Below are positions 23,697 through 42,639 of a DNA stretch of 64,000 bases, piece after piece (within the stretch, counting starts at the first letter, position 1; each line of letters starts with the position of its first letter). A model generated the notes under the pieces. It searched no databases. It saw only the letters and a program-made list of their open reading frames with translations, and was not told where the DNA came from. This DNA is from Abditibacterium sp. (GTDB lineage Bacteria; Armatimonadota; Abditibacteriia; Abditibacteriales; Abditibacteriaceae), in the NCBI GenBank assembly GCA_965246705.1, contig CBDFFF010000001.1, positions 413,253-477,252 on the forward strand. Direction: 5' to 3'. The translations under genes were made by a program, and so were the position numbers.

Positions 23697-24767
23697 ATGT
23701 CGGGACGTGTTTTAATGGCGATGAGCGGCGGAGTAGATTCCAGCGTCGCCGCCGCCTTGTTAGTTGAAGAGGGTTACGAGGTCGTCGGCGCGACGATGAA
23801 GTTATGGGCGGGCGAGGACGATCCCTTCGCCGCGCACCGTTTTGGCGGTTGTTGCACGGTCGGCTCCTCCGAAGACGCGCGCCGCGTCGCGCATCTGCTC
23901 GACATCCCCTACTACGTTCTCAACCTCCAGGACGAGTTCCACGCGCGCGTCGTCGATAACTTCGTCGCGACTTATGCGGCGGGCGAAACCCCTAACCCCT
24001 GCGCTCGTTGCAATGAGTGGATTAAATTCCGCGCTTTCATCGAGCGCGCCGACGAACTCGACTGCGAATTCATCGCCACCGGCCACTACGCCCGCGTCGA
24101 GCGTGACGAGGATGGCACCGCCCATCTCCTACGCGGCTTCGACACCCGCAAGGACCAGTCGTATGTCCTGGGAATGCTCACCCAACGCGAACTGCGCCGC
24201 GTCCTGCTCCCCATCGGCGGCATCGAAAAGTCAGAAACCCGCCAGATCGCCGCCAAGCTCGGCATGGCCGTCGCCACCAAGCCCGATTCACAGGAAATCT
24301 GTTTCGTCGAAGATGGCGACTACGCCCGCTTCGTCATCGAGCGCGCCCCGCAAATGGCCCTGTCCGGCCCCATCGTGGATACCAGTGGCACCAAGCTAGG
24401 CGAACATCACGGATTGGCCCACTACACCGTCGGCCAGCGCAAGGGACTCGGCATCGCCGCTCCCCAGCCCCTGTTCGTCTCCAAAATAGACACTGCCACC
24501 AACACCCTCGTCGTCGGCCCCCGCGAAGGTTTGGCCCACGCGGGCCTCAGCGCCTACGGCGCCACTTGGACACAGGCTATTCCCGCCGTTGGCACCAAGT
24601 TGGGCGCCCAACTCCGCTCCCACGCCCGCGCCCACGAGGGCACCGTCATCCGCGGCGACGCAGAGGGTTTCGAGTTCCAATTCGACGCCCCCACCGGAGT
24701 CACCCCCGGCCAAATGTGCGTCCTCTACGAAAACGACGAAGTCCGAGGCGCAGGTACGCTTAATTGA
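23697..24767 (+). CDS. mnmA: tRNA 2-thiouridine(34) synthase
   Basis: AMSGGVDSS, TPNPCARCN, ATGHYAR, KDQSY, KPDSQEICF, YTVGQRKGLG and VTPGQ motifs. Confidence 0.97.
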   Translation: MSGRVLMAMSGGVDSSVAAALLVEEGYEVVGATMKLWAGEDDPFAAHRFGGCCTVGSSEDARRVAHLLDIPYYVLNLQDEFHARVVDNFVATYAAGETPNPCARCNEWIKFRAFIERADELDCEFIATGHYARVERDEDGTAHLLRGFDTRKDQSYVLGMLTQRELRRVLLPIGGIEKSETRQIAAKLGMAVATKPDSQEICFVEDGDYARFVIERAPQMALSGPIVDTSGTKLGEHHGLAHYTVGQRKGLGIAAPQPLFVSKIDTATNTLVVGPREGLAHAGLSAYGATWTQAIPAVGTKLGAQLRSHARAHEGTVIRGDAEGFEFQFDAPTGVTPGQMCVLYENDEVRGAGTLN

Positions 24768-28931: not shown

Positions 28932-28963
28932 AAAGGGCCGCTTCATTATGAAGCGGCCCTCTT
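28932..28963. terminator. bidirectional terminator between dnaJ and the tRNA cluster
   Basis: AAAGGGCCGCTTCAT-T-ATGAAGCGGCCCTCTT. Confidence 0.75.
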
Positions 28964-28968
28964 AATTC

Positions 28969-29043
28969 TGTCCATAGAGGGACTCGAGCCCCCAACATCG
29001 ACGGTCTAAACGTCGCGCCTCTGCCAGATTGGGCTATATGGAC
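28969..29043 (-). tRNA. tRNA-Leu(TAG), short variable loop, T54>C
   Basis: GTCCATA/TATGGAC acceptor; D arm GCC..GGC; CGACG-TTTAGAC-CGTCG anticodon arm; 5-nt variable loop; GGGGG-CTCGAGT-CCCTC T arm; A73; no CCA. Confidence 0.8.
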
Positions 29044-29047
29044 GAAC

Positions 29048-29120
29048 TGTGCGCGAAGGGAGTCCTCTCTTACTCTGTTGGTTTTAAATCAACTGTCTCT
29101 GCCAGTTGGACTACGCGCAC
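29048..29120 (-). tRNA. tRNA-Leu(TAA)-like, short variable loop, T-loop motif replaced (possible pseudo-tRNA)
   Basis: GTGCGCG/CGCGCAC acceptor; GTC..GAC D stem; GTTGA-TTTAAAA-CCAAC; T arm reads AAG-AGAG-GACT-CCCTT instead of AAG-GGTTC-GACT-CCCTT. Confidence 0.65.
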
Positions 29121-29129
29121 AAGTTGTAC

Positions 29130-29202
29130 TATCCGCGAAAGGACTCCTCTTTCATCTTCCAGAATCTCGTTCTGGCGCCTCTACCAGTTGGGCCACGCGG
29201 AC
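29130..29202 (-). tRNA. tRNA-Leu(GAG)-like, short variable loop, U33 lost, T-loop motif replaced (possible pseudo-tRNA)
   Basis: GTCCGCG/CGCGGAT acceptor; GCC..GGC D stem; CCAGA-ACGAGAT-TCTGG; T arm GAA-AGAG-GAGT-CCTTT. Confidence 0.6.
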
Positions 29203-29209
29203 AAAAAAG

Positions 29210-29281
29210 CAGTCGGGGTGGGGCTCGAACCCACGATAACCTCATTAACAGTGAGGCGCGTTACCGCTTCGCCACCCGACT
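29210..29281 (-). tRNA. tRNA-Asn(GTT)
   Basis: AGTCGGG/CCCGACT acceptor; G73; CCTCA-CTGTTAA-TGAGG; GTGGG-TTCGAGC-CCCAC; canonical cloverleaf; no CCA. Confidence 0.92.
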
Positions 29282-29285
29282 ACAA

Positions 29286-29355
29286 TTGCCCGACCCCGGC
29301 TCGAACGAGGAAAGAAGATCCAAAGTTTTCCGTCATACCACTTGACCATCGGGCA
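29286..29355 (-). tRNA. tRNA-Gln(TTG)
   Basis: TGCCCGA/TCGGGCA acceptor (U1-A72); GTC..GAC D stem; GAAAA-CTTTGGA-TCTTC with one mismatch; 3-nt variable loop; CCTCG-TTCGAGC-CGGGG. Confidence 0.8.
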
Positions 29356-29365
29356 GAAACACAAC

Positions 29366-29403
29366 AAAAAAGGCCCGTCGCTGAGGTTTCAGCAACGGGC
29401 CTT
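29366..29403 (-). terminator. intrinsic terminator / attenuator upstream of the tRNA cluster
   Basis: Minus strand AAGGCCCGTTGCTGA-AACC-TCAGCGACGGGCCTT-TTTT: 15-bp stem with one G.U, ending 10 nt before tRNA-Gln. Confidence 0.85.
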
Positions 29404-29425
29404 GAGAATGAAAACGAAATCTAAC

Positions 29426-29524
29426 TTATCGCTTCTCTGCGGCACGGAAACCCGAACGACGAACGGAACCTTGCAGTTGGAGTTGCAGGTTCTGGCGATT
29501 CAGATTCAGTGCTAAAGCGAACAT
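29426..29524 (-). CDS. putative 32-aa Leu/Asn/Gln-rich leader peptide MFALALNLNRQNLQLQLQGSVRRSGFRAAEKR
   Basis: ATG TTC GCT TTA GCA CTG AAT CTG AAT CGC CAG AAC CTG CAA CTC CAA CTG CAA GGT...CGA TAA; 13 of residues 4-18 are L/N/Q; lies between promoter and terminator. No clear SD. Confidence 0.7.
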   Translation of the reverse strand: MFALALNLNRQNLQLQLQGSVRRSGFRAAEKR

Positions 29525-29557
29525 AAGGGGCGGCGCCCACGCGCCGAACTCATAGAA

Positions 29558-29586
29558 ATTATAAACGCGCTTCGATAAATATGCAA
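29558..29586 (-). promoter_or_regulatory. sigma70-type promoter driving leader + tRNA cluster
   Basis: Minus strand TTGCAT (29586-29581), exactly 17 nt, TATAAT (29563-29558). Confidence 0.8.
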
Positions 29587-36558: not shown

Positions 36559-39500
36559 TTACTCCGTGATGCTCACTCGCATTTCATCGCTGGTGGCGCG
36601 CACTTCGGGGGCATACATGGCATAGCCGTTGGTGGGCAAGGCATGGAATGTTCCCGGCACTTCGGCGCGCACTCGATAGCGTAGCACGCGACGGCCTTGC
36701 GGCAGGTTGCTCACGAAGAACGCGGTTTTGTCGTCGCGCATTTCGACGTAGTAGCTCAGGCTATCGTTCGAGTCGTAGCCGCTGCGCACGTCCACCGGCT
36801 CGAAGCCCGCCGCCTTCATGTCCTCGAACAGCAGATATTCGTAGTCGTTTTTCGCGTTGACCACGAGTTCGACTTCGATCAAATCGCCCGATTTGACCGT
36901 CGCGCCGTCTTTGATCGCTTCGCGTTTGTATTCCGGTGCGGGCGGAATGCTGTCGCGCGGCGGGAATGGCGGCCTGATGCGCGGCATCATTGCGACCCCT
37001 ACCTTGCCTTGCGTTTGCGGCTGTCCCTGAGTGGGGTTAGCGTCGGGTTTGGTTTCGGCGCGCGTCAGCTTGTAGAAAGTGCGGCTCACTTCGAGTTCGT
37101 TGCCGCTACCCTTGATGGGGTCTTCGCGCGAGAACGAGTCTTCGTAGGCGCTGAAATACAGCTTGCCGCGACCCTTCTTCTCGATGGTAAGGGTGTTCGA
37201 CTTGTCGCCCGATTCGAGGAACAAGTCGCCCGCACGGAAGCGGTTATCGAACCACAGCGCGTTATCTGCCGTGATGTGATAGGTGCGCGCCAGTTGACCG
37301 TTGAGATTGACGTTCACCGTCATATCCACATCGAGTTCGTGGTGATGGGCCACATAAGCGGCGAGGGTGTACACGACTTCGGCGGTTTCTTTGGTGCTGC
37401 GCCAGTGGTTGCCGCGCGAGTTGAGCGTGAGCCACTTGGCGAACATCGGCACCAATCTGTTGTCGGGTTCTATCTCGTCGAAGGCGCGAAGCGCGAGCGC
37501 CACGGTTTCGACATCGTTGTTCCACCAATACCAATAGCTCGCCTGGGTCTGGTAGCGCGCTGTGCCGTTGGCGGCGTCCACCTTGACGGTGTTTTCGAGG
37601 TTGCGAACCAATACGTTCGCTTTGTCCTTTTCGTTCGCCTTGAACAGCGTCATCGCCAGATACGCTTTGGAAAGTGGGGTCAGGCGGTCGCGCTGTTGGA
37701 ACAAACGTCCTGCGGCGATGCCTTTGGTCGTGCCGTCTACGTTGATTTGGGCCAGAGCGTAGGCCATGTAAGCCAGCAAATGCAAGTTATCTTCGTCCTT
37801 CATTTGCTTTTGCAGATAGGACCGTCCGCGATTCAACATGCTCTGGTCGCCTTCGATTTTCGCCAGTCGCGCCTGAGACAGGCCGTAGACGACGTAGGCC
37901 GACATATATTCGTCGCTTTCCGAGGCGCCGGGGAACCAGCCCCAGCCACCATCGGAGCGCTGCATCGAAGCGAGGCGTTGCAAGCCTTCCTTCGTCATCT
38001 GCTTAATCTTGCCGCCGTCATAAATCGGGTTGTTGCTGCGGTTGTGATACCACATCTGCGAGGCCATCTCGTCTAGATCGCGCCCGCCCGGTTCACCTTT
38101 GGGAAAGGTGTAGCCCGAATTTTTGACGCGAGTTCCCACCGATTCGGCTTTGGCTTCTTTGGAGTAGGCCTGAGCGCGGGCGCGAAGCGTTTGCAGGTTC
38201 ACACCCGACGTTTGTAACGAGCGCTCGACCAGAGCCGAGGGCAGGAAGCGCGACATGGTTTGCTCGACGCAGCCGTAGGGATAGTCGGACAGGTAGGGCA
38301 GGGCATCCAGTGCCGTCGCCGCCAGCGACGGGTTCATTTGCACGTTGAGTTGCGTGGCGCCGAACTGCCGCTGTTTCGGGAAGGTAAGCGGAATTTTCGT
38401 GGTGCCGTCCACTGTAATGACGCCGGTATGGGCGGCGAACTGCGGCGCTCCATGCGTGAGCACAGGAAAGCTGAGTCGTACCGCATCGGAATCGGTGCCC
38501 GTTTTGGCCGATACCTGAATGGAGGTTTGGCCTTCCTGCGTGACGTTAAACAGCCAGTCAATGCGCTTTTCGCCACCAGCGGGAATGAGAGTCGTGTTTT
38601 GCGCGCGGGCTCCCGCTGCCTCGCTCGAAAGTTCGAGGCCGGGATGCGCGGCGGCCAGTGCGTAGGACACGCTCTGCTCTTTGTCGGTGTAGTTGTGGAT
38701 GTTCGCCGAAACCACGACTTTGTCTTTTTCAACAAAGAAGCGGGGGGCTTGAAGGCGAACCAGCAAATCTTTCTTCGTCGCGGCGTCGGTATCGGCGCTG
38801 CCGACTTCGACGGTGTTGGTGAGGCCGCGCGCTGTCGCGTGCCACTGCGTCAGGCTGTCGGGGAAGGTCACTTTGACCGTTGCCGTGCCGTTGTCGGTGA
38901 TGACCGCTGGCGACCAGTAGGCGGTTTCGGCGAAGTTGGTTCGCACCTGTCCCGAATCGCCGGTGCCGGGGGCTTCTGCTGCTGCACTTTTAGCCATCCG
39001 CAGTTGAGTGGATGGCGCCGCTGGTGCCATCATTGGCATCGGCGCGGCGGCATCGGCAGCCATAGTGCCATTAACTACCGGGGTGGTGAAGAAGGAGCGG
39101 GAAAGGCCTGCTGTGCTGCCAGGTAGACCACCACCTATACCATACGGATACCAGCCGAAGTTGCCGGGTTGGAGTTGCAATTGGCCGAAGTCGTCGGGCA
39201 ATTCCCAACTGTGGGTTTCGATGTTCGGGTCGGTGGGGGCTTCGCGGCGCGGGTCGATGTTTCCTGAACGACTTGAATCGAGGTTGACCGAGTTGCCGCG
39301 ACGGTCGCCGTAGAAGAAGGAGCGCACATCGGGGGTGGAATCGCTTTGGATATAGAACAGGCTGGCGTCGATGAGCGCGAGAGAAACCTCGGCGCGGGCC
39401 GGAGCGCCGCTCCAATCGCGGGCGCTGATCTGGAAGGTGCCGGTTTCGCCCGGTTTGTAGGTCGCTTTGTCGCTTTTCACGTTTAGCTTCAACAACTGGC

Positions 39501-42500
39501 GTGTCGGTGGCACGATGACTTCGGTTTGCGCTTGCGCGACCTCGTAGTCCTGCACCACGGCGGCGCCCAGGAAGAAGTTGGGGACGTGGGTTTTATTGAT
39601 CGGGATGTTGACTTCGACCGACTGCCCAGGAATCGGCACAATCTGGCGGCTGAGAATCTGGCCGTTGGCTTCCTGCGTGAACAGGACGTTGGCGCCCGGT
39701 TTATCGGCGACCAGGCGCGCGTGCAGCGTTTGGCCTTCTTCGTAAGATTCCTTGTCGAGCAGGATGGTGACGCCGCGCAAGCGGATTTGGCCGACGCTTT
39801 CGCCCACGACCCAGATTTCTTGCGATGCCATCGGCTTATCGCCCCAAGTGGTCTGGCCTTCAAACTCGACGCGGAATTGTCCCGAATCCGTCGCTTCCCA
39901 TGTCCAGGTGGCGCGGCCAGTGGCGTCGGTGGTGATGGGTTGTTCGAGAACTTTTTCTTCTTTGTCGTTGGGGAGCAAGCGGAAGACGCGCATGGTGCCC
40001 GTCGCTTTGACGGGGATTTCGTTAGCGTCCTGCGTGCGCAGTTCGATGGGGACACGGTCGCCTTTCTGGAAGTAGCCGCGCTCGACGTTCAAGAAGGCGA
40101 AATAGGGCTGGTTGGCAACTTTGACTTGGCCTTGCGCTTCGATAGTGCGCCGCGACGAGTCGGTGATTTCCGCTTCGATGGTGTAGAGCGGGTTCGATTT
40201 CCAGACGGGGTAGAAGCCGTAGCGGACCTGGGGCTGTGAATCGGAGTCGGTGATGGACTGGGTTTGGAAGGCAATTTTCGCATTGCCCTGCGCGTCGGTG
40301 GTGGTGGTGCCTTCATAGACGACTTCACCACTGCCCTCGCCGCCGATGTTGCGGCGATTGCCGTAGTCGTTCATACCCCACGAGGTCATCAACCAATCAT
40401 AGGGTGTGGGGAAGTTGAAGCTGGCCCACCAACTCGATTTGCGAACCGTGTATTTCACCTTCGCGTTCGGGACGGGGGCACCGAAGTAGTAGTGCGCCGA
40501 AAGCTGCGCCTCGACATTTTCGCCGGGGCGTTTGACTTCTTTGGGGGCTGTGACGACCACTTCAAATTCGGGGCGTTTGTATTCTTCGACGCGGAAGCTG
40601 GCGCTGCCGTCCATATCCTTGTCGTCGGTGATGTTCAGGTTGCAGACGCCCAGCGTTGATGAATCGGGGATCGGGAAAGAGCCCGACAGCGAGCCGAACT
40701 CGTTGGTGGTGGCGCTGCCTTCCCACAGCTTTGTGCCGCGCGTGTCGGTGGCGGTGATAGAGAATTTGTGGTCTTTGACGACCTGACGGTCGTTGCCTTG
40801 AGCGCGCGTGGTGGCGACGAAGCGGAAATTCACCTTTTGGCCGGGACGATAGACCGGACGGTCGGTGTAGCCCAGCACTTTGGGCTGCGCGCCGGAGTCG
40901 TTGTTCCACCAGCCGCTGCCCTGAGCGCTGGTGAGCGCGTAGCGGTTGCCGACGAAGGCAAAGGCCGCGAAGCTGGAGTTATTATCGCCCGCCCGCTTTT
41001 TGTCGAAGAAGCCGTCCGCGTCGGAAGCGCCGCGCGCGACACTGATTTTGCGCGGGTTATAATCCCAGGTTTCTTTGATGACAACGCTGGCGCCGGGAAC
41101 CTTCTGGCCCGATTTCGCATCGCACGCCCATACGAAGGCGCCGTCCACATCGCTCTTTTTGAGCAGGGCCAAATCGGAGATGACGACGATTTGGCCGAAG
41201 CGCACGTCGCCCGCGCTCGCCACCACAACGTAAGCGCCCATGTCTGAGACGGGCACATCGAGTTTGGTGTCTTGCTCGGTGTAGTCGCCGTTGTCTTTGG
41301 TGGTGATTTTCCAGCGCGCGGCGGGATCGCCCAGTTTGCCCGTCAGGTCGGAGAACGAGCCGAAGTTGCGGTCGAAGGACGTGAAGGTCGTGTCGGCATC
41401 GCCCAGGGGCTTGGGCGCGAGCAGGAAATCTTCCAGCTTAACGCGATAAGCCGCGAAGAACACGTCTTTGAGGTTGCGGCTCGTCATTTCCAGGTGCGGT
41501 TTGTCGCCCGGTTTGGTCGTGCCGTTCACGCTAAAGCCAATTTCGCGCTTCTCGATCTGGCGGATGGCGGCGCGGGCATCATTGGCCCATTTCGACCTGG
41601 GATATTTGGCCAGTAGTTCGAGCCATATCTTGCGCGCTTCTACCGAAGTGGTCTGGTGCTGGGCCAGCAGTGCCAGCGTTTGTGGGGCGAGAGGCGAGGT
41701 GGGGTAGGTATCGACCAGTTTGCGAAGCGGCGCGTTGGGGTTCAGGCTCTGGAACGGGTAGGGGCGCTTAATGGTTTTCTGGGTCTGGTCGTCATATTTG
41801 GGAGCCCAGGCATCCATGCGCTGCTTGTAGGCGCTGAGGAAGAAGCCTTCGCCGAGCAGCGAACGCTGCGATTTGGCTTTGGCATCATCCCCATCCAGTG
41901 TTCGGATTTGCGCGTAGAGAAAGAGCACCTTTTTCGGCAGGCTCCAGCCCGTCGAATAGGGCACGCTGGGGTCAATGGCTTCATCGAAGGGCGCGTCGCC
42001 GGTTCGTTTGTCGAGAGCAGGGAGCCAGTCGTTGAAGGTGGCCTGGGGCAAGAAGGCGGCGAGGTCGAGATTGAGGTCGCATTCTTCGTCCCACGAAAGG
42101 GGATAGATGGGCGCGAAGTAGCGGTTTTGCTTGGCGTCGCGCCGCTCTTTTTCGGCGGCGACTTTGGCTTTTTCGAGGTTATCGAGTGCGGCCTTCTGAT
42201 CGCTGTCGTTCAGATACACCGCTTGCGGGGTTTCGCCGTTTTTGACTTCCGGGTACTCGTCGCTGCGGGTGGTCTTATCGCCGATTTTCCAGGCGCGGTG
42301 GGGTGCTTTGACGTAGAGTTGGCCGAGCAGATAGTAGAATCGCGCTTTCCAACTGGCGTTCAAAACGCCATCGTTGGCAGCAGCGATGGCCTCGTCCCAC
42401 TTTTCGCTCTTGAAAAGGGCAGTGGCGAGTTCGTAGTTCACGCGCTCTGGTTCACGCACGGGGCCAGCCGCCTTCGCCGCACGAAAGAGTTCGATGGCTC

Positions 42501-42639
42501 GCCCATAGGATTTTTCGACCAGAGCTTGGCGTGCTTGCGCGAGGGTATCGGGTGTGTTCTGCGCCCGCGCCGGAAGCGAGGCCGCGCAGAGCAGCGCGCC
42601 GAGCAGGAGCGGTAACAGAGGTTTGCTTGGAAATCTCAT
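36559..42639 (-). CDS. bacterial alpha-2-macroglobulin (MG2 domain) with N-terminal TPR-like region
   Basis: TDRPVYRPGQ, FRVEEYKRPEF, VRTNFAETAYW and FPDSLTQW; thioester motif PYGCVEQT; QRSDGGWGW. Confidence 0.93.
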   Translation of the reverse strand: MRFPSKPLLPLLLGALLCAASLPARAQNTPDTLAQARQALVEKSYGRAIELFRAAKAAGPVREPERVNYELATALFKSEKWDEAIAAANDGVLNASWKARFYYLLGQLYVKAPHRAWKIGDKTTRSDEYPEVKNGETPQAVYLNDSDQKAALDNLEKAKVAAEKERRDAKQNRYFAPIYPLSWDEECDLNLDLAAFLPQATFNDWLPALDKRTGDAPFDEAIDPSVPYSTGWSLPKKVLFLYAQIRTLDGDDAKAKSQRSLLGEGFFLSAYKQRMDAWAPKYDDQTQKTIKRPYPFQSLNPNAPLRKLVDTYPTSPLAPQTLALLAQHQTTSVEARKIWLELLAKYPRSKWANDARAAIRQIEKREIGFSVNGTTKPGDKPHLEMTSRNLKDVFFAAYRVKLEDFLLAPKPLGDADTTFTSFDRNFGSFSDLTGKLGDPAARWKITTKDNGDYTEQDTKLDVPVSDMGAYVVVASAGDVRFGQIVVISDLALLKKSDVDGAFVWACDAKSGQKVPGASVVIKETWDYNPRKISVARGASDADGFFDKKRAGDNNSSFAAFAFVGNRYALTSAQGSGWWNNDSGAQPKVLGYTDRPVYRPGQKVNFRFVATTRAQGNDRQVVKDHKFSITATDTRGTKLWEGSATTNEFGSLSGSFPIPDSSTLGVCNLNITDDKDMDGSASFRVEEYKRPEFEVVVTAPKEVKRPGENVEAQLSAHYYFGAPVPNAKVKYTVRKSSWWASFNFPTPYDWLMTSWGMNDYGNRRNIGGEGSGEVVYEGTTTTDAQGNAKIAFQTQSITDSDSQPQVRYGFYPVWKSNPLYTIEAEITDSSRRTIEAQGQVKVANQPYFAFLNVERGYFQKGDRVPIELRTQDANEIPVKATGTMRVFRLLPNDKEEKVLEQPITTDATGRATWTWEATDSGQFRVEFEGQTTWGDKPMASQEIWVVGESVGQIRLRGVTILLDKESYEEGQTLHARLVADKPGANVLFTQEANGQILSRQIVPIPGQSVEVNIPINKTHVPNFFLGAAVVQDYEVAQAQTEVIVPPTRQLLKLNVKSDKATYKPGETGTFQISARDWSGAPARAEVSLALIDASLFYIQSDSTPDVRSFFYGDRRGNSVNLDSSRSGNIDPRREAPTDPNIETHSWELPDDFGQLQLQPGNFGWYPYGIGGGLPGSTAGLSRSFFTTPVVNGTMAADAAAPMPMMAPAAPSTQLRMAKSAAAEAPGTGDSGQVRTNFAETAYWSPAVITDNGTATVKVTFPDSLTQWHATARGLTNTVEVGSADTDAATKKDLLVRLQAPRFFVEKDKVVVSANIHNYTDKEQSVSYALAAAHPGLELSSEAAGARAQNTTLIPAGGEKRIDWLFNVTQEGQTSIQVSAKTGTDSDAVRLSFPVLTHGAPQFAAHTGVITVDGTTKIPLTFPKQRQFGATQLNVQMNPSLAATALDALPYLSDYPYGCVEQTMSRFLPSALVERSLQTSGVNLQTLRARAQAYSKEAKAESVGTRVKNSGYTFPKGEPGGRDLDEMASQMWYHNRSNNPIYDGGKIKQMTKEGLQRLASMQRSDGGWGWFPGASESDEYMSAYVVYGLSQARLAKIEGDQSMLNRGRSYLQKQMKDEDNLHLLAYMAYALAQINVDGTTKGIAAGRLFQQRDRLTPLSKAYLAMTLFKANEKDKANVLVRNLENTVKVDAANGTARYQTQASYWYWWNNDVETVALALRAFDEIEPDNRLVPMFAKWLTLNSRGNHWRSTKETAEVVYTLAAYVAHHHELDVDMTVNVNLNGQLARTYHITADNALWFDNRFRAGDLFLESGDKSNTLTIEKKGRGKLYFSAYEDSFSREDPIKGSGNELEVSRTFYKLTRAETKPDANPTQGQPQTQGKVGVAMMPRIRPPFPPRDSIPPAPEYKREAIKDGATVKSGDLIEVELVVNAKNDYEYLLFEDMKAAGFEPVDVRSGYDSNDSLSYYVEMRDDKTAFFVSNLPQGRRVLRYRVRAEVPGTFHALPTNGYAMYAPEVRATSDEMRVSITE

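Follow-up and report, generated by a model that had tools for sequence, protein, structure and literature searches.

What controls a small transfer RNA (tRNA) array that is separated from its promoter by a short open reading frame (ORF) and an intrinsic terminator? The question is raised by a locus on the minus strand of a 64,000-nucleotide (nt) stretch of Abditibacterium sp. DNA (contig CBDFFF010000001.1, positions 413,253 to 477,252; hereafter the window), which belongs to the lineage Abditibacteriaceae. Bacterial tRNA genes are usually described as promoter-controlled, by growth rate and the stringent response. A preliminary description of this DNA had reported leader codons that match the anticodons of the array behind them, and had interpreted the arrangement as a self-sensing attenuator. 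Comparison with relatives, in which the leader is conserved in frame and co-varies with the array, supports this interpretation, and we consider it probable from the sequences compared that ribosome-mediated leader-peptide attenuation with codon-specific sensing controls this spare tRNA operon. We know of no description of direct feedback from codon-specific decoding speed onto the transcription of the matching tRNA genes.

The promoter, ORF, terminator and tRNAs of the preliminary description were all found on the minus strand where it had placed them (Table 1). The -35 hexamer fits only three of the six consensus bases, which is why a consensus promoter scan did not list the promoter; when seven homologous loci are aligned, CTTGC and TATAAT stand out as islands of conservation. 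The six Leu control codons of the leader are TTA, CTC and four CTG. According to our recount and a check with simple wobble rules, the claim that codons 4-18 hold 13 Leu, Asn or Gln codons is correct, and all 13 are readable by the five downstream anticodons. These three amino acids account for 17.6% of the residues in the long ORFs of the focal genome, and under this proteome composition the probability of at least 13 of them in a given 15-codon span is 1.2e-8 (2e-7 corrected for 17 spans). The terminator has a stem of 15 bp with nine G-C pairs and a 4-nt loop, is followed by TTTTGTTGTG, and has a hairpin energy of -28.0 kcal/mol.

The end of the terminator stem lies 14 nt from tRNA-Gln, and no promoter-like site was found in this gap, which answers the objection, raised beforehand, that the tRNAs might have a promoter of their own there. 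The same gap bears on an extremely unlikely alternative, in which the ORF encodes a functional small protein, the hairpin is the terminator of that gene, and the tRNAs arise from leak-through or an unrecognised promoter. The peptides are indeed fairly well conserved within groups of homologous leaders (e.g., LYLWLHRRPxLSxRKVRV). However, a promoter does not fit into 14 nt, all that peptides of different groups have in common is a set of composition rules linked to the tRNAs behind them, and the predicted antiterminator overlaps the ORF and co-varies with the terminator.

The order of promoter, 5' hairpin, ATGTTY start, ORF, terminator and Gln-Asn-Leu(n) array is the same in six other species of the genus, whose loci show 69-89% DNA identity to the query over the aligned parts. 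Their leader ORFs have 31-36 codons, are rich in Leu, Asn and Gln, retain the frame, and begin with the invariant ATGTTY; examples are MFALALNLNQQNLQLQLQ.., MFTFSLRQSFLQNLHLLQNL.., MFVFALNLNQLALQNLQ.., MFSQSLRLAVNLGLQLQNLN.. and MFVFALNLNQLALQNLQTN.., each ahead of a Gln-Asn-Leu(n) array. In-frame conservation of the leader, for which the preliminary description had asked, therefore holds in all six loci. Another locus, L007 (genome G011, contig C74), has a leader at 464-700 that is 84% identical to the Gln-Asn-Leu leader of G004 and is separated by about 800 nt from a downstream Asn-Leu(taa) pair (1501-1650). This pair has no adjoining terminator, and the locus is possibly a disrupted cassette.

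Cassettes of this design, including those with other tRNA sets, are carried by at least 17 of the 27 family genomes in the collection. In the 26 cassettes, ORFs of 25-85 codons are open from a conserved ATG, and the stop codon is located 15-34 nt before a strong terminator in every case, while the related arrays contain 1-15 tRNA genes. The focal genome possesses three cassettes with three different leaders, namely the focal one, a Cys-Asp-Arg cassette at contig C17 and a Phe-Met cassette at C21. The design was found at none of its approximately 45 other tRNA loci, and its housekeeping tRNA genes are without it.

Leader sequences differ with the arrays that follow them. Cys-Asp-Arg(-Ser) arrays are located behind leaders with ..CRCDRRSDRSDR.., Arg-Cys-Asp-Ser arrays behind leaders with ..ICRCDRRSDRSDR.., Cys-Asp-Arg arrays behind leaders with ..RDCACDCRR.., and an Arg-Cys-Asp-His array behind a leader with ..HPDHPFHNAHDLCRADDRRR... 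At locus L035, a His tRNA was gained together with His codons in the leader. An Arg-Glu-Asp-Gln-Ser-Lys-Pro-Asn array follows a leader with SPKSENSRNS..NQPRNEKRNDQSQ and ..SPKSENSRNSGGAQGNQPRNEKRNDQSQ.., and the leader of a 14-tRNA array (R, C, H, Q, S, L, W, M) consists of those residues to 80%. A Phe-Met array is preceded by MSRSMFMSF.., and the leader of an Asn-only locus is Asn-rich. Leaders of unrelated composition also share an N-terminal pattern, M-x-x-F/I/L-F/L (MTNFF, MQNFF, MFQIFF, MFALAL, MLSFLSQ, MRAFTSLQSG, MTHFISLQSG), which array content does not explain. At L033 and L036 (G006, G008), a Tyr tRNA with its own upstream terminator and a conserved ORF (..RRPSSAPKSGSYR..), in which no more than one or two codons are for Tyr, stands back to back with a divergent Arg-Cys-Asp-Ser cassette.

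Co-variation between leader and array, a check that the preliminary description had proposed, was measured with a match score, the fraction of leader residues whose tRNA is present in the array, and arrays were permuted among homology groups. The 26 cassettes fall into 9-12 independent groups, with related groups merged to nine for the conservative test. With 12 groups, the match was 0.437 against 0.300 +/- 0.023 in permuted data, and none of 20,000 permutations reached the observed value; with nine groups, it was 0.399 against 0.280 +/- 0.022, which none of 50,000 permutations reached (p about 2e-5). Composition thus follows array content, and it does so in frame 0 only, as frames +1 and +2 of the same leader regions gave no such signal (p about 0.99). 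Selecting leaders by an objective longest-ATG-ORF rule gave p = 2e-5, and taking one random representative per group gave p of at most 0.0004.

The signal is spread over many amino acids: for 17 of the 19 testable ones, the frequency in leaders whose array includes the cognate tRNA equals or exceeds that in other leaders, with ratios of 6.4 for Cys, 3.4 for Met, 3.0 for Trp, and 2.9 for both Asn and Asp. Enrichment over proteome expectation was seen in 22 of the 26 leaders. The matching residues occur in contiguous mid-leader runs (0.49, versus 0.17 in codons 2-5 and 0.27 in the last ten). As for codons, 440 of 539 amino-acid-matched ones are wobble-readable by the anticodons of their own array, and AGY codons make up 42% of Ser codons where the array has a GCU tRNA, compared with 18-19% elsewhere.

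These statistics also bear on the possibility that the leader is a general translation-stress sensor, whose terminator would be bypassed whenever ribosomes slow (antibiotics, cold, ribosome damage), with codon identity carrying little weight. Such a device would resemble the tRNA array of Anabaena or leaders of the erm/cat/vmlR type. The Anabaena L-array is induced by ribosome-targeting antibiotics and aids survival (PMC8421152), and the N-terminal M-x-x-F-F/L-like motif, which all leaders share whatever their array, could act independently of codon supply. However, a stress sensor gives no reason for leader composition to follow tRNA content at the significance found, and the joint gain of His codons and His tRNA at L035, as well as the three arrays with different leaders in one genome, also argue against it. 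Moreover, no mid-leader arrest motif is conserved across groups. We therefore regard a sensor of this kind as quite improbable.

The minimum free energy (MFE) fold of the focal leader has -74.1 kcal/mol (z = -4.1). Besides the 5' hairpin and the terminator, it is predicted to contain a long hairpin between codons 5-14 and codons 17-28 and a small one that spans the stop codon. The 5' hairpin belongs to the consensus structure of the seven loci, with one compensatory pair. The helix between segments 1 and 2 (29512-29484 with 29475-29442), predicted by both the MFE and the centroid fold and partly present in the consensus fold, overlaps the regulatory codons. In the seven-locus alignment, four stem positions of the terminator show compensatory changes.

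A stalled ribosome was modelled by removing the RNA under a ribosome halted at codons 8-17 before refolding. According to the prediction, the freed GGUUUCCGUGCC then base-pairs with the terminator at its distal 5' arm and loop, and the homologous segment of relatives pairs likewise through different sequences (CAUCUGGC with GCUGGAUG; ACUUCCG with CUGGAAGU). In the seven-locus alignment, this antiterminator helix is 84.8% paired, compared with 71.0 +/- 3.6 for shuffled sequences (0 of 500) and 35-52% for slid ones, and three of its pairs are altered on both sides. The antiterminator beats shuffled sequence in 17 of the 26 loci, with a group mean z of -2.28 (t-test p = 0.002). Alternative helices 1:2, 2:3 and 3:4 are accordingly predicted to be laid out in the leader.

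The proposed switch would work as follows. The strong promoter would fire constitutively, giving a transcript that opens with the 5' hairpin and the 32-codon ORF. If no ribosome were present, segment 1 would pair with segment 2, the terminator would form, and transcription would end 14 nt before tRNA-Gln; if a ribosome reached the stop codon, it would cover segment 2, and the terminator would form as well. When charged Leu, Asn or Gln tRNAs were scarce, the ribosome would stall on the run and leave segment 2 free. The freed antiterminator strand would then capture the distal 5' arm of the terminator together with its loop, RNA polymerase would read through, and the five tRNAs would be made and processed. 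The new tRNAs would relieve the stall, closing a negative feedback loop on decoding capacity.

In this scheme, we infer the translation of the leader, the stalling, the termination and read-through, and the physiological trigger. Candidate triggers would be the loss of tRNA to toxins or damage, starvation, and general translation stress. We speculate that the logic of the circuit is better suited to the loss of particular tRNAs, or to damage to them, than to amino-acid starvation, which additional tRNA could not remedy. For the family as a whole, we also lean, somewhat less firmly, towards a broader picture, in which the tRNA genes of Abditibacteriaceae fall into two classes, a housekeeping set that is expressed constitutively and several backup operons that are self-sensing. 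Through its own leader ORF, each of the latter would gauge the decoding speed of exactly those codons that its tRNAs read, and would be transcribed only on demand; leader and tRNA content would co-evolve module by module, and a short tRNA-Leu family without the long variable arm would decode Leu codons.

Regarding the array itself, the reported set of five tRNAs stands for Gln(ttg), Asn(gtt) and Leu(tag), the only genes that ARAGORN called there. The Leu(GAG) and Leu(UAA) genes, which ARAGORN missed, are marginal, being matched by Rfam only (tRNA model cut-off, 29 bits) and having odd T loops. In these two adjacent genes, as well as in one gene of G012 (L002 1918-1990), an AGAGGA-type sequence stands in place of the GGTTCGA T-loop motif, with AGGAGUC and AGGACU as the loops. 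Orthologues of the altered Leu genes in other species retain the canonical GGTTCGA, and the G012 orthologue of the Leu(UAA) gene has the canonical GGTTCGAGTCC. The replacement could be due to gene conversion between neighbours or to decay. All three Leu-anticodon genes of the array are 73-75 nt long and without a long variable arm. The focal genome has 64 ARAGORN tRNA genes, including ordinary long tRNA-Leu (taa, cag, caa, gag). Because separate housekeeping genes for Gln(ttg), Asn(gtt), Leu(gag), Leu(taa) and Leu(tag), all with sequences differing from the array copies, exist elsewhere in the genome, the array is supernumerary.

Several observations weigh against attenuation by codon-specific stalling. 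Since extra tRNA cannot relieve amino-acid starvation, the benefit of the circuit hangs on the inferred trigger. Leader and array match poorly at L022 (0.09), L030 (0.14) and L032 (P = 0.19), and at two Tyr-only loci the upstream ORF contains just one or two Tyr codons. The focal leader and its same-genus homologues lack a recognisable Shine-Dalgarno sequence ahead of the ATG, and part of the LQNLQ signal overlaps a conserved CUGCA..UGCAG hairpin, so that RNA and coding constraints are entangled. At the focal locus, the antiterminator has a net energy of -4.0 kcal/mol (z = +0.8; -12.5 kcal/mol as a bare duplex), which is no better than shuffled sequence and the weakest of the family. The focal array also contains two degenerate T arms and a mismatch in the anticodon stem of tRNA-Gln.

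The missing Shine-Dalgarno sequence in the focal group, the strong fold and the conserved hairpins inside the Leu/Gln run would all suit a leader that is a non-translated structured RNA (riboswitch, protein-binding site, or processing/stability element), with frame and composition as by-products. We consider this very unlikely, in view of the frame that stays open from the conserved ATG to the stop codon at its set distance from the terminator in 26 loci, and of an array match confined to frame 0. In addition, the leaders match nothing in Rfam, neither T-box nor any known leader family, and those of different groups are unalignable as RNA yet follow the same composition rule.

The weak antiterminator, the two T arms and the tRNA-Gln mismatch indicate that the focal copy of the cassette may be partly degenerate. 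A further-reaching explanation accepts the design as real in the family but takes the focal copy to be a relic in decay, which has ceased to switch or to supply working Leu tRNAs. Besides the features just named, it can draw on the loss of a T-loop motif that orthologues have kept, on scores of 29.8 and 36.5 bits against the cut-off of 29, and on codon 10, which is Arg in the focal leader and Gln in the two closest relatives. However, promoter, ORF and terminator are intact, as are 13 of 13 cognate codons, with 85-89% identity to two other species, and the occurrence of the same T-loop change in G012 argues for retention, not random decay. A relic thus seems unlikely to us, and we keep a codon-sensing attenuator as the preferred reading of the focal locus.

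Table 1. Features of the tRNA cassette, numbered from the first nucleotide of the window
Feature	Position	Strand	Basis
-35-like hexamer TTGCAT	29581..29586	-	read directly; CTTGC conserved in 7/7 homologous loci
-10 hexamer TATAAT, 17-nt spacer to -35	29558..29563	-	read directly; invariant in 7-locus alignment
5' hairpin CGGCGC-GUGG-GCGCCG, just ahead of start codon	29531..29546	-	MFE and centroid folds
Leader ORF, 32 codons and TAA, MFALALNLNRQNLQLQLQGSVRRSGFRAAEKR	29426..29524	-	conserved in frame in G012, G002, G006, G007, G004, G009
Control codons 4-18 (6 Leu, 3 Asn, 4 Gln among 15)	29471..29515	-	codon count
Segment 1, 5' strand of long leader hairpin, codons 5-14	29484..29512	-	MFE fold
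Segment 2, 3' strand of leader hairpin, holding antiterminator 5' strand	29442..29475	-	predicted folds
Antiterminator 5' strand GGUUUCCGUGCC, codons 25-28	29441..29452	-	predicted pairing and compensatory changes
Intrinsic terminator (attenuator): 5' arm 29403-29389, loop 29388-29385, 3' arm 29384-29370, U tract 29369-29364	29364..29403	-	15 pairs
tRNA-Gln(UUG), 70 nt, one anticodon-stem mismatch	29286..29355	-	ARAGORN; Rfam RF00005, 42.2 bits
tRNA-Asn(GUU), 73 nt	29209..29281	-	ARAGORN; Rfam, 66.6 bits
Short tRNA-Leu(GAG)-like gene, 73 nt, T loop AGGAGUC, C33	29130..29202	-	Rfam only, 29.8 bits
Short tRNA-Leu(UAA)-like gene, 73 nt, degenerate T arm	29048..29120	-	Rfam only, 36.5 bits
Short tRNA-Leu(UAG), 75 nt, no long variable arm	28969..29043	-	ARAGORN; Rfam, 52.4 bits
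Two-way terminator hairpin ending the tRNA operon and convergent dnaJ, 12 pairs	28934..28960	.	hairpin scan

The cassette is best read as a trp-type attenuator applied to tRNA genes; apart from the kind of gene controlled, it has the defining parts, the antiterminator among them as a predicted helix. Like the attenuators trpL, hisL, leuL, pheL, thrL, ilvL and pheM (pheST), it combines a presumably constitutive promoter with a short ORF in which regulatory codons form a run, and the first gene is preceded by an intrinsic terminator. The 1:2, 2:3 and 3:4 helices, which exclude one another in those attenuators, are predicted here. Sensing of several amino acids together is known from the thr and ilv leaders as well. 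The known attenuators control enzymes or synthetases, whereas here solely tRNA genes and then an operon terminator follow, and the output would replenish the sensed molecule. The cassette resembles these attenuators neither in sequence nor in Rfam model matches. The focal group also differs in having no Shine-Dalgarno sequence, and leaders of the family reach 85 codons and sample up to about ten amino acids.

No Rfam leader family (Leu_leader, His_leader, Thr_leader, Trp_leader and others) matched the focal leader; the sole Thr_leader match falls on the dnaJ terminator and scores 18.5 bits, below the cut-off of 55. In 20 related loci, Rfam gave tRNA matches alone, without any leader, T-box or small RNA family, and the T-box model had no match up to E = 10 at the focal locus. 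T-box riboswitches likewise let tRNA status decide between terminator and antiterminator, but they bind one uncharged tRNA directly, do not need the ribosome and control synthetase or amino-acid genes, while the signal here depends on the reading frame. As identities of the leader transcript of about 185 nt, 6S RNA, transfer-messenger RNA (tmRNA) and signal recognition particle RNA were rejected, with no Rfam or ARAGORN match.

The closest parallel in purpose that we compared is the L-array (trn operon) of Anabaena sp. PCC 7120. It consists of spare tRNA genes in an operon that is silent until induced by translation stress (PMC8421152) and controlled by promoter repeats and the TrcR repressor (PMC8421152, PMC10272220). 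Both systems have supernumerary tRNA genes apart from the housekeeping set that are, as proposed or shown, silent by default and switched on when translation is impaired. However, the Anabaena array has 26 genes and resides on a megaplasmid, while the cassettes have 1-15 genes, are chromosomal and appear to be controlled in cis, each being matched to codons of its own. In the text on the Anabaena array (PMC8421152), the words leader, attenuat- and terminator are absent. The definition of a tRNA array unit or L-array asks for 20 or more tRNA genes, with two or more per kb (PMC4758250, PMC8421152). With five genes in 387 nt, the focal array attains this density but not this number, and the largest related array has 15. 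It shares with L-arrays the duplication of housekeeping isoacceptors by supernumerary genes of differing sequence.

Searches of a paper library turned up no account of tRNA arrays or operons under the control of a leader peptide or attenuator. If our reading is true, leader-peptide attenuation would gain a new class of target, and the cassette would be a simple tRNA homeostat acting in cis, suitable for transfer into reporters, as well as a readout, from sequence alone, of the codons that a spare tRNA set is meant to serve. Its logic may explain how bacteria and phages hold costly spare tRNAs silent until pools are damaged or outpaced.

A sequence-similarity search gave no cassette match outside Abditibacteriaceae. 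Among more distant genomes, the tRNA clusters of four were inspected directly. Three class-level relatives (G026-G028) have ordinary clusters with long tRNA-Leu, a promoter directly upstream and no upstream terminator. A sister-family genome has an Asp-Glu-His-Ala array behind a similar terminator, and the frame upstream reads ..ENEDDDEDEDDF..EHAIRRH... A metagenome scan for the focal leader start ATGTTYGYTTTNGSNYTGAAYYTRAA returned three chance matches, none with tRNAs, and a scan of the genome collection for the common terminator found solely Abditibacteriaceae metagenome-assembled genomes and one ordinary Pseudomonas terminator without tRNA. In a BLAST search of phages and plasmids with the cassette, the leader was unmatched, and the sole match was that of the short tRNA-Leu(UAG), with 82% identity, to tRNA-Leu genes of Mycobacterium prophage arrays. 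One such array (L069, Mycobacterium phage prophi86-1, 64211-64286) has tRNA-Leu(tag) and tRNA-Leu(caa) genes of 76 nt, one of which is 82% identical to the focal short Leu(UAG). Its neighbours are an RtcB ligase, an RF-1-like gene and a tmRNA, and tRNA-Leu of the short type may thus mark tRNA arrays that are mobile.

The short tRNA-Leu genes form a family of 73-78 nt without a long variable arm, with the D arm GCCCAAYTGGYAGAGGC and A73, and with all five Leu anticodons represented. Examples are found at 28969-29202 of the window, in G000 at C21:1060360-1060432, and at loci L004-L006, L011, L023, L024 and L012-L018. In several members of Abditibacteriaceae, the apparently sole Leu(UAG) gene outside arrays is of the short type and stands beside tRNA-Gly, while class-level relatives have normal Leu(UAG) genes of 85-88 nt. 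The short Leu(UAG) gene outside the array in the focal genome has the same D arm as the long tRNA-Leu genes of that genome. Two unusual tRNA-like sequences were also seen in G000. At C22:584206-584282, ARAGORN called a tRNA with a four-base anticodon (ctgg), where Rfam scores 47.6 bits. At C21:1740514-1740628 (L042), 2 kb downstream of the Phe-Met cassette, a 115-nt tRNA-like match (35.2 bits) has an insert of about 40 nt.

The neighbours of the focal cassette are mnmA, hrcA-grpE-dnaJ (convergent, sharing the operon-end terminator), a divergent gene for a Hva1/TUDOR protein, an FGGY kinase and a solute-binding protein. A prophage or mobile-element setting is ruled out by mnmA, hrcA-grpE-dnaJ, the sugar kinase and ordinary regulators as neighbours, none of them a phage gene, and the locus is core chromosome. 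The other two cassettes of the focal genome likewise sit among ordinary chromosomal genes. The gene mnmA (23697-24767, plus strand) encodes the tRNA 2-thiouridylase that acts on U34 of Gln, Lys and Glu tRNAs; it lies 4.5 kb from the array, and this proximity is probably a coincidence. Finally, the window also contains an ORF of 2026 codons at 36559-42639 on the minus strand.

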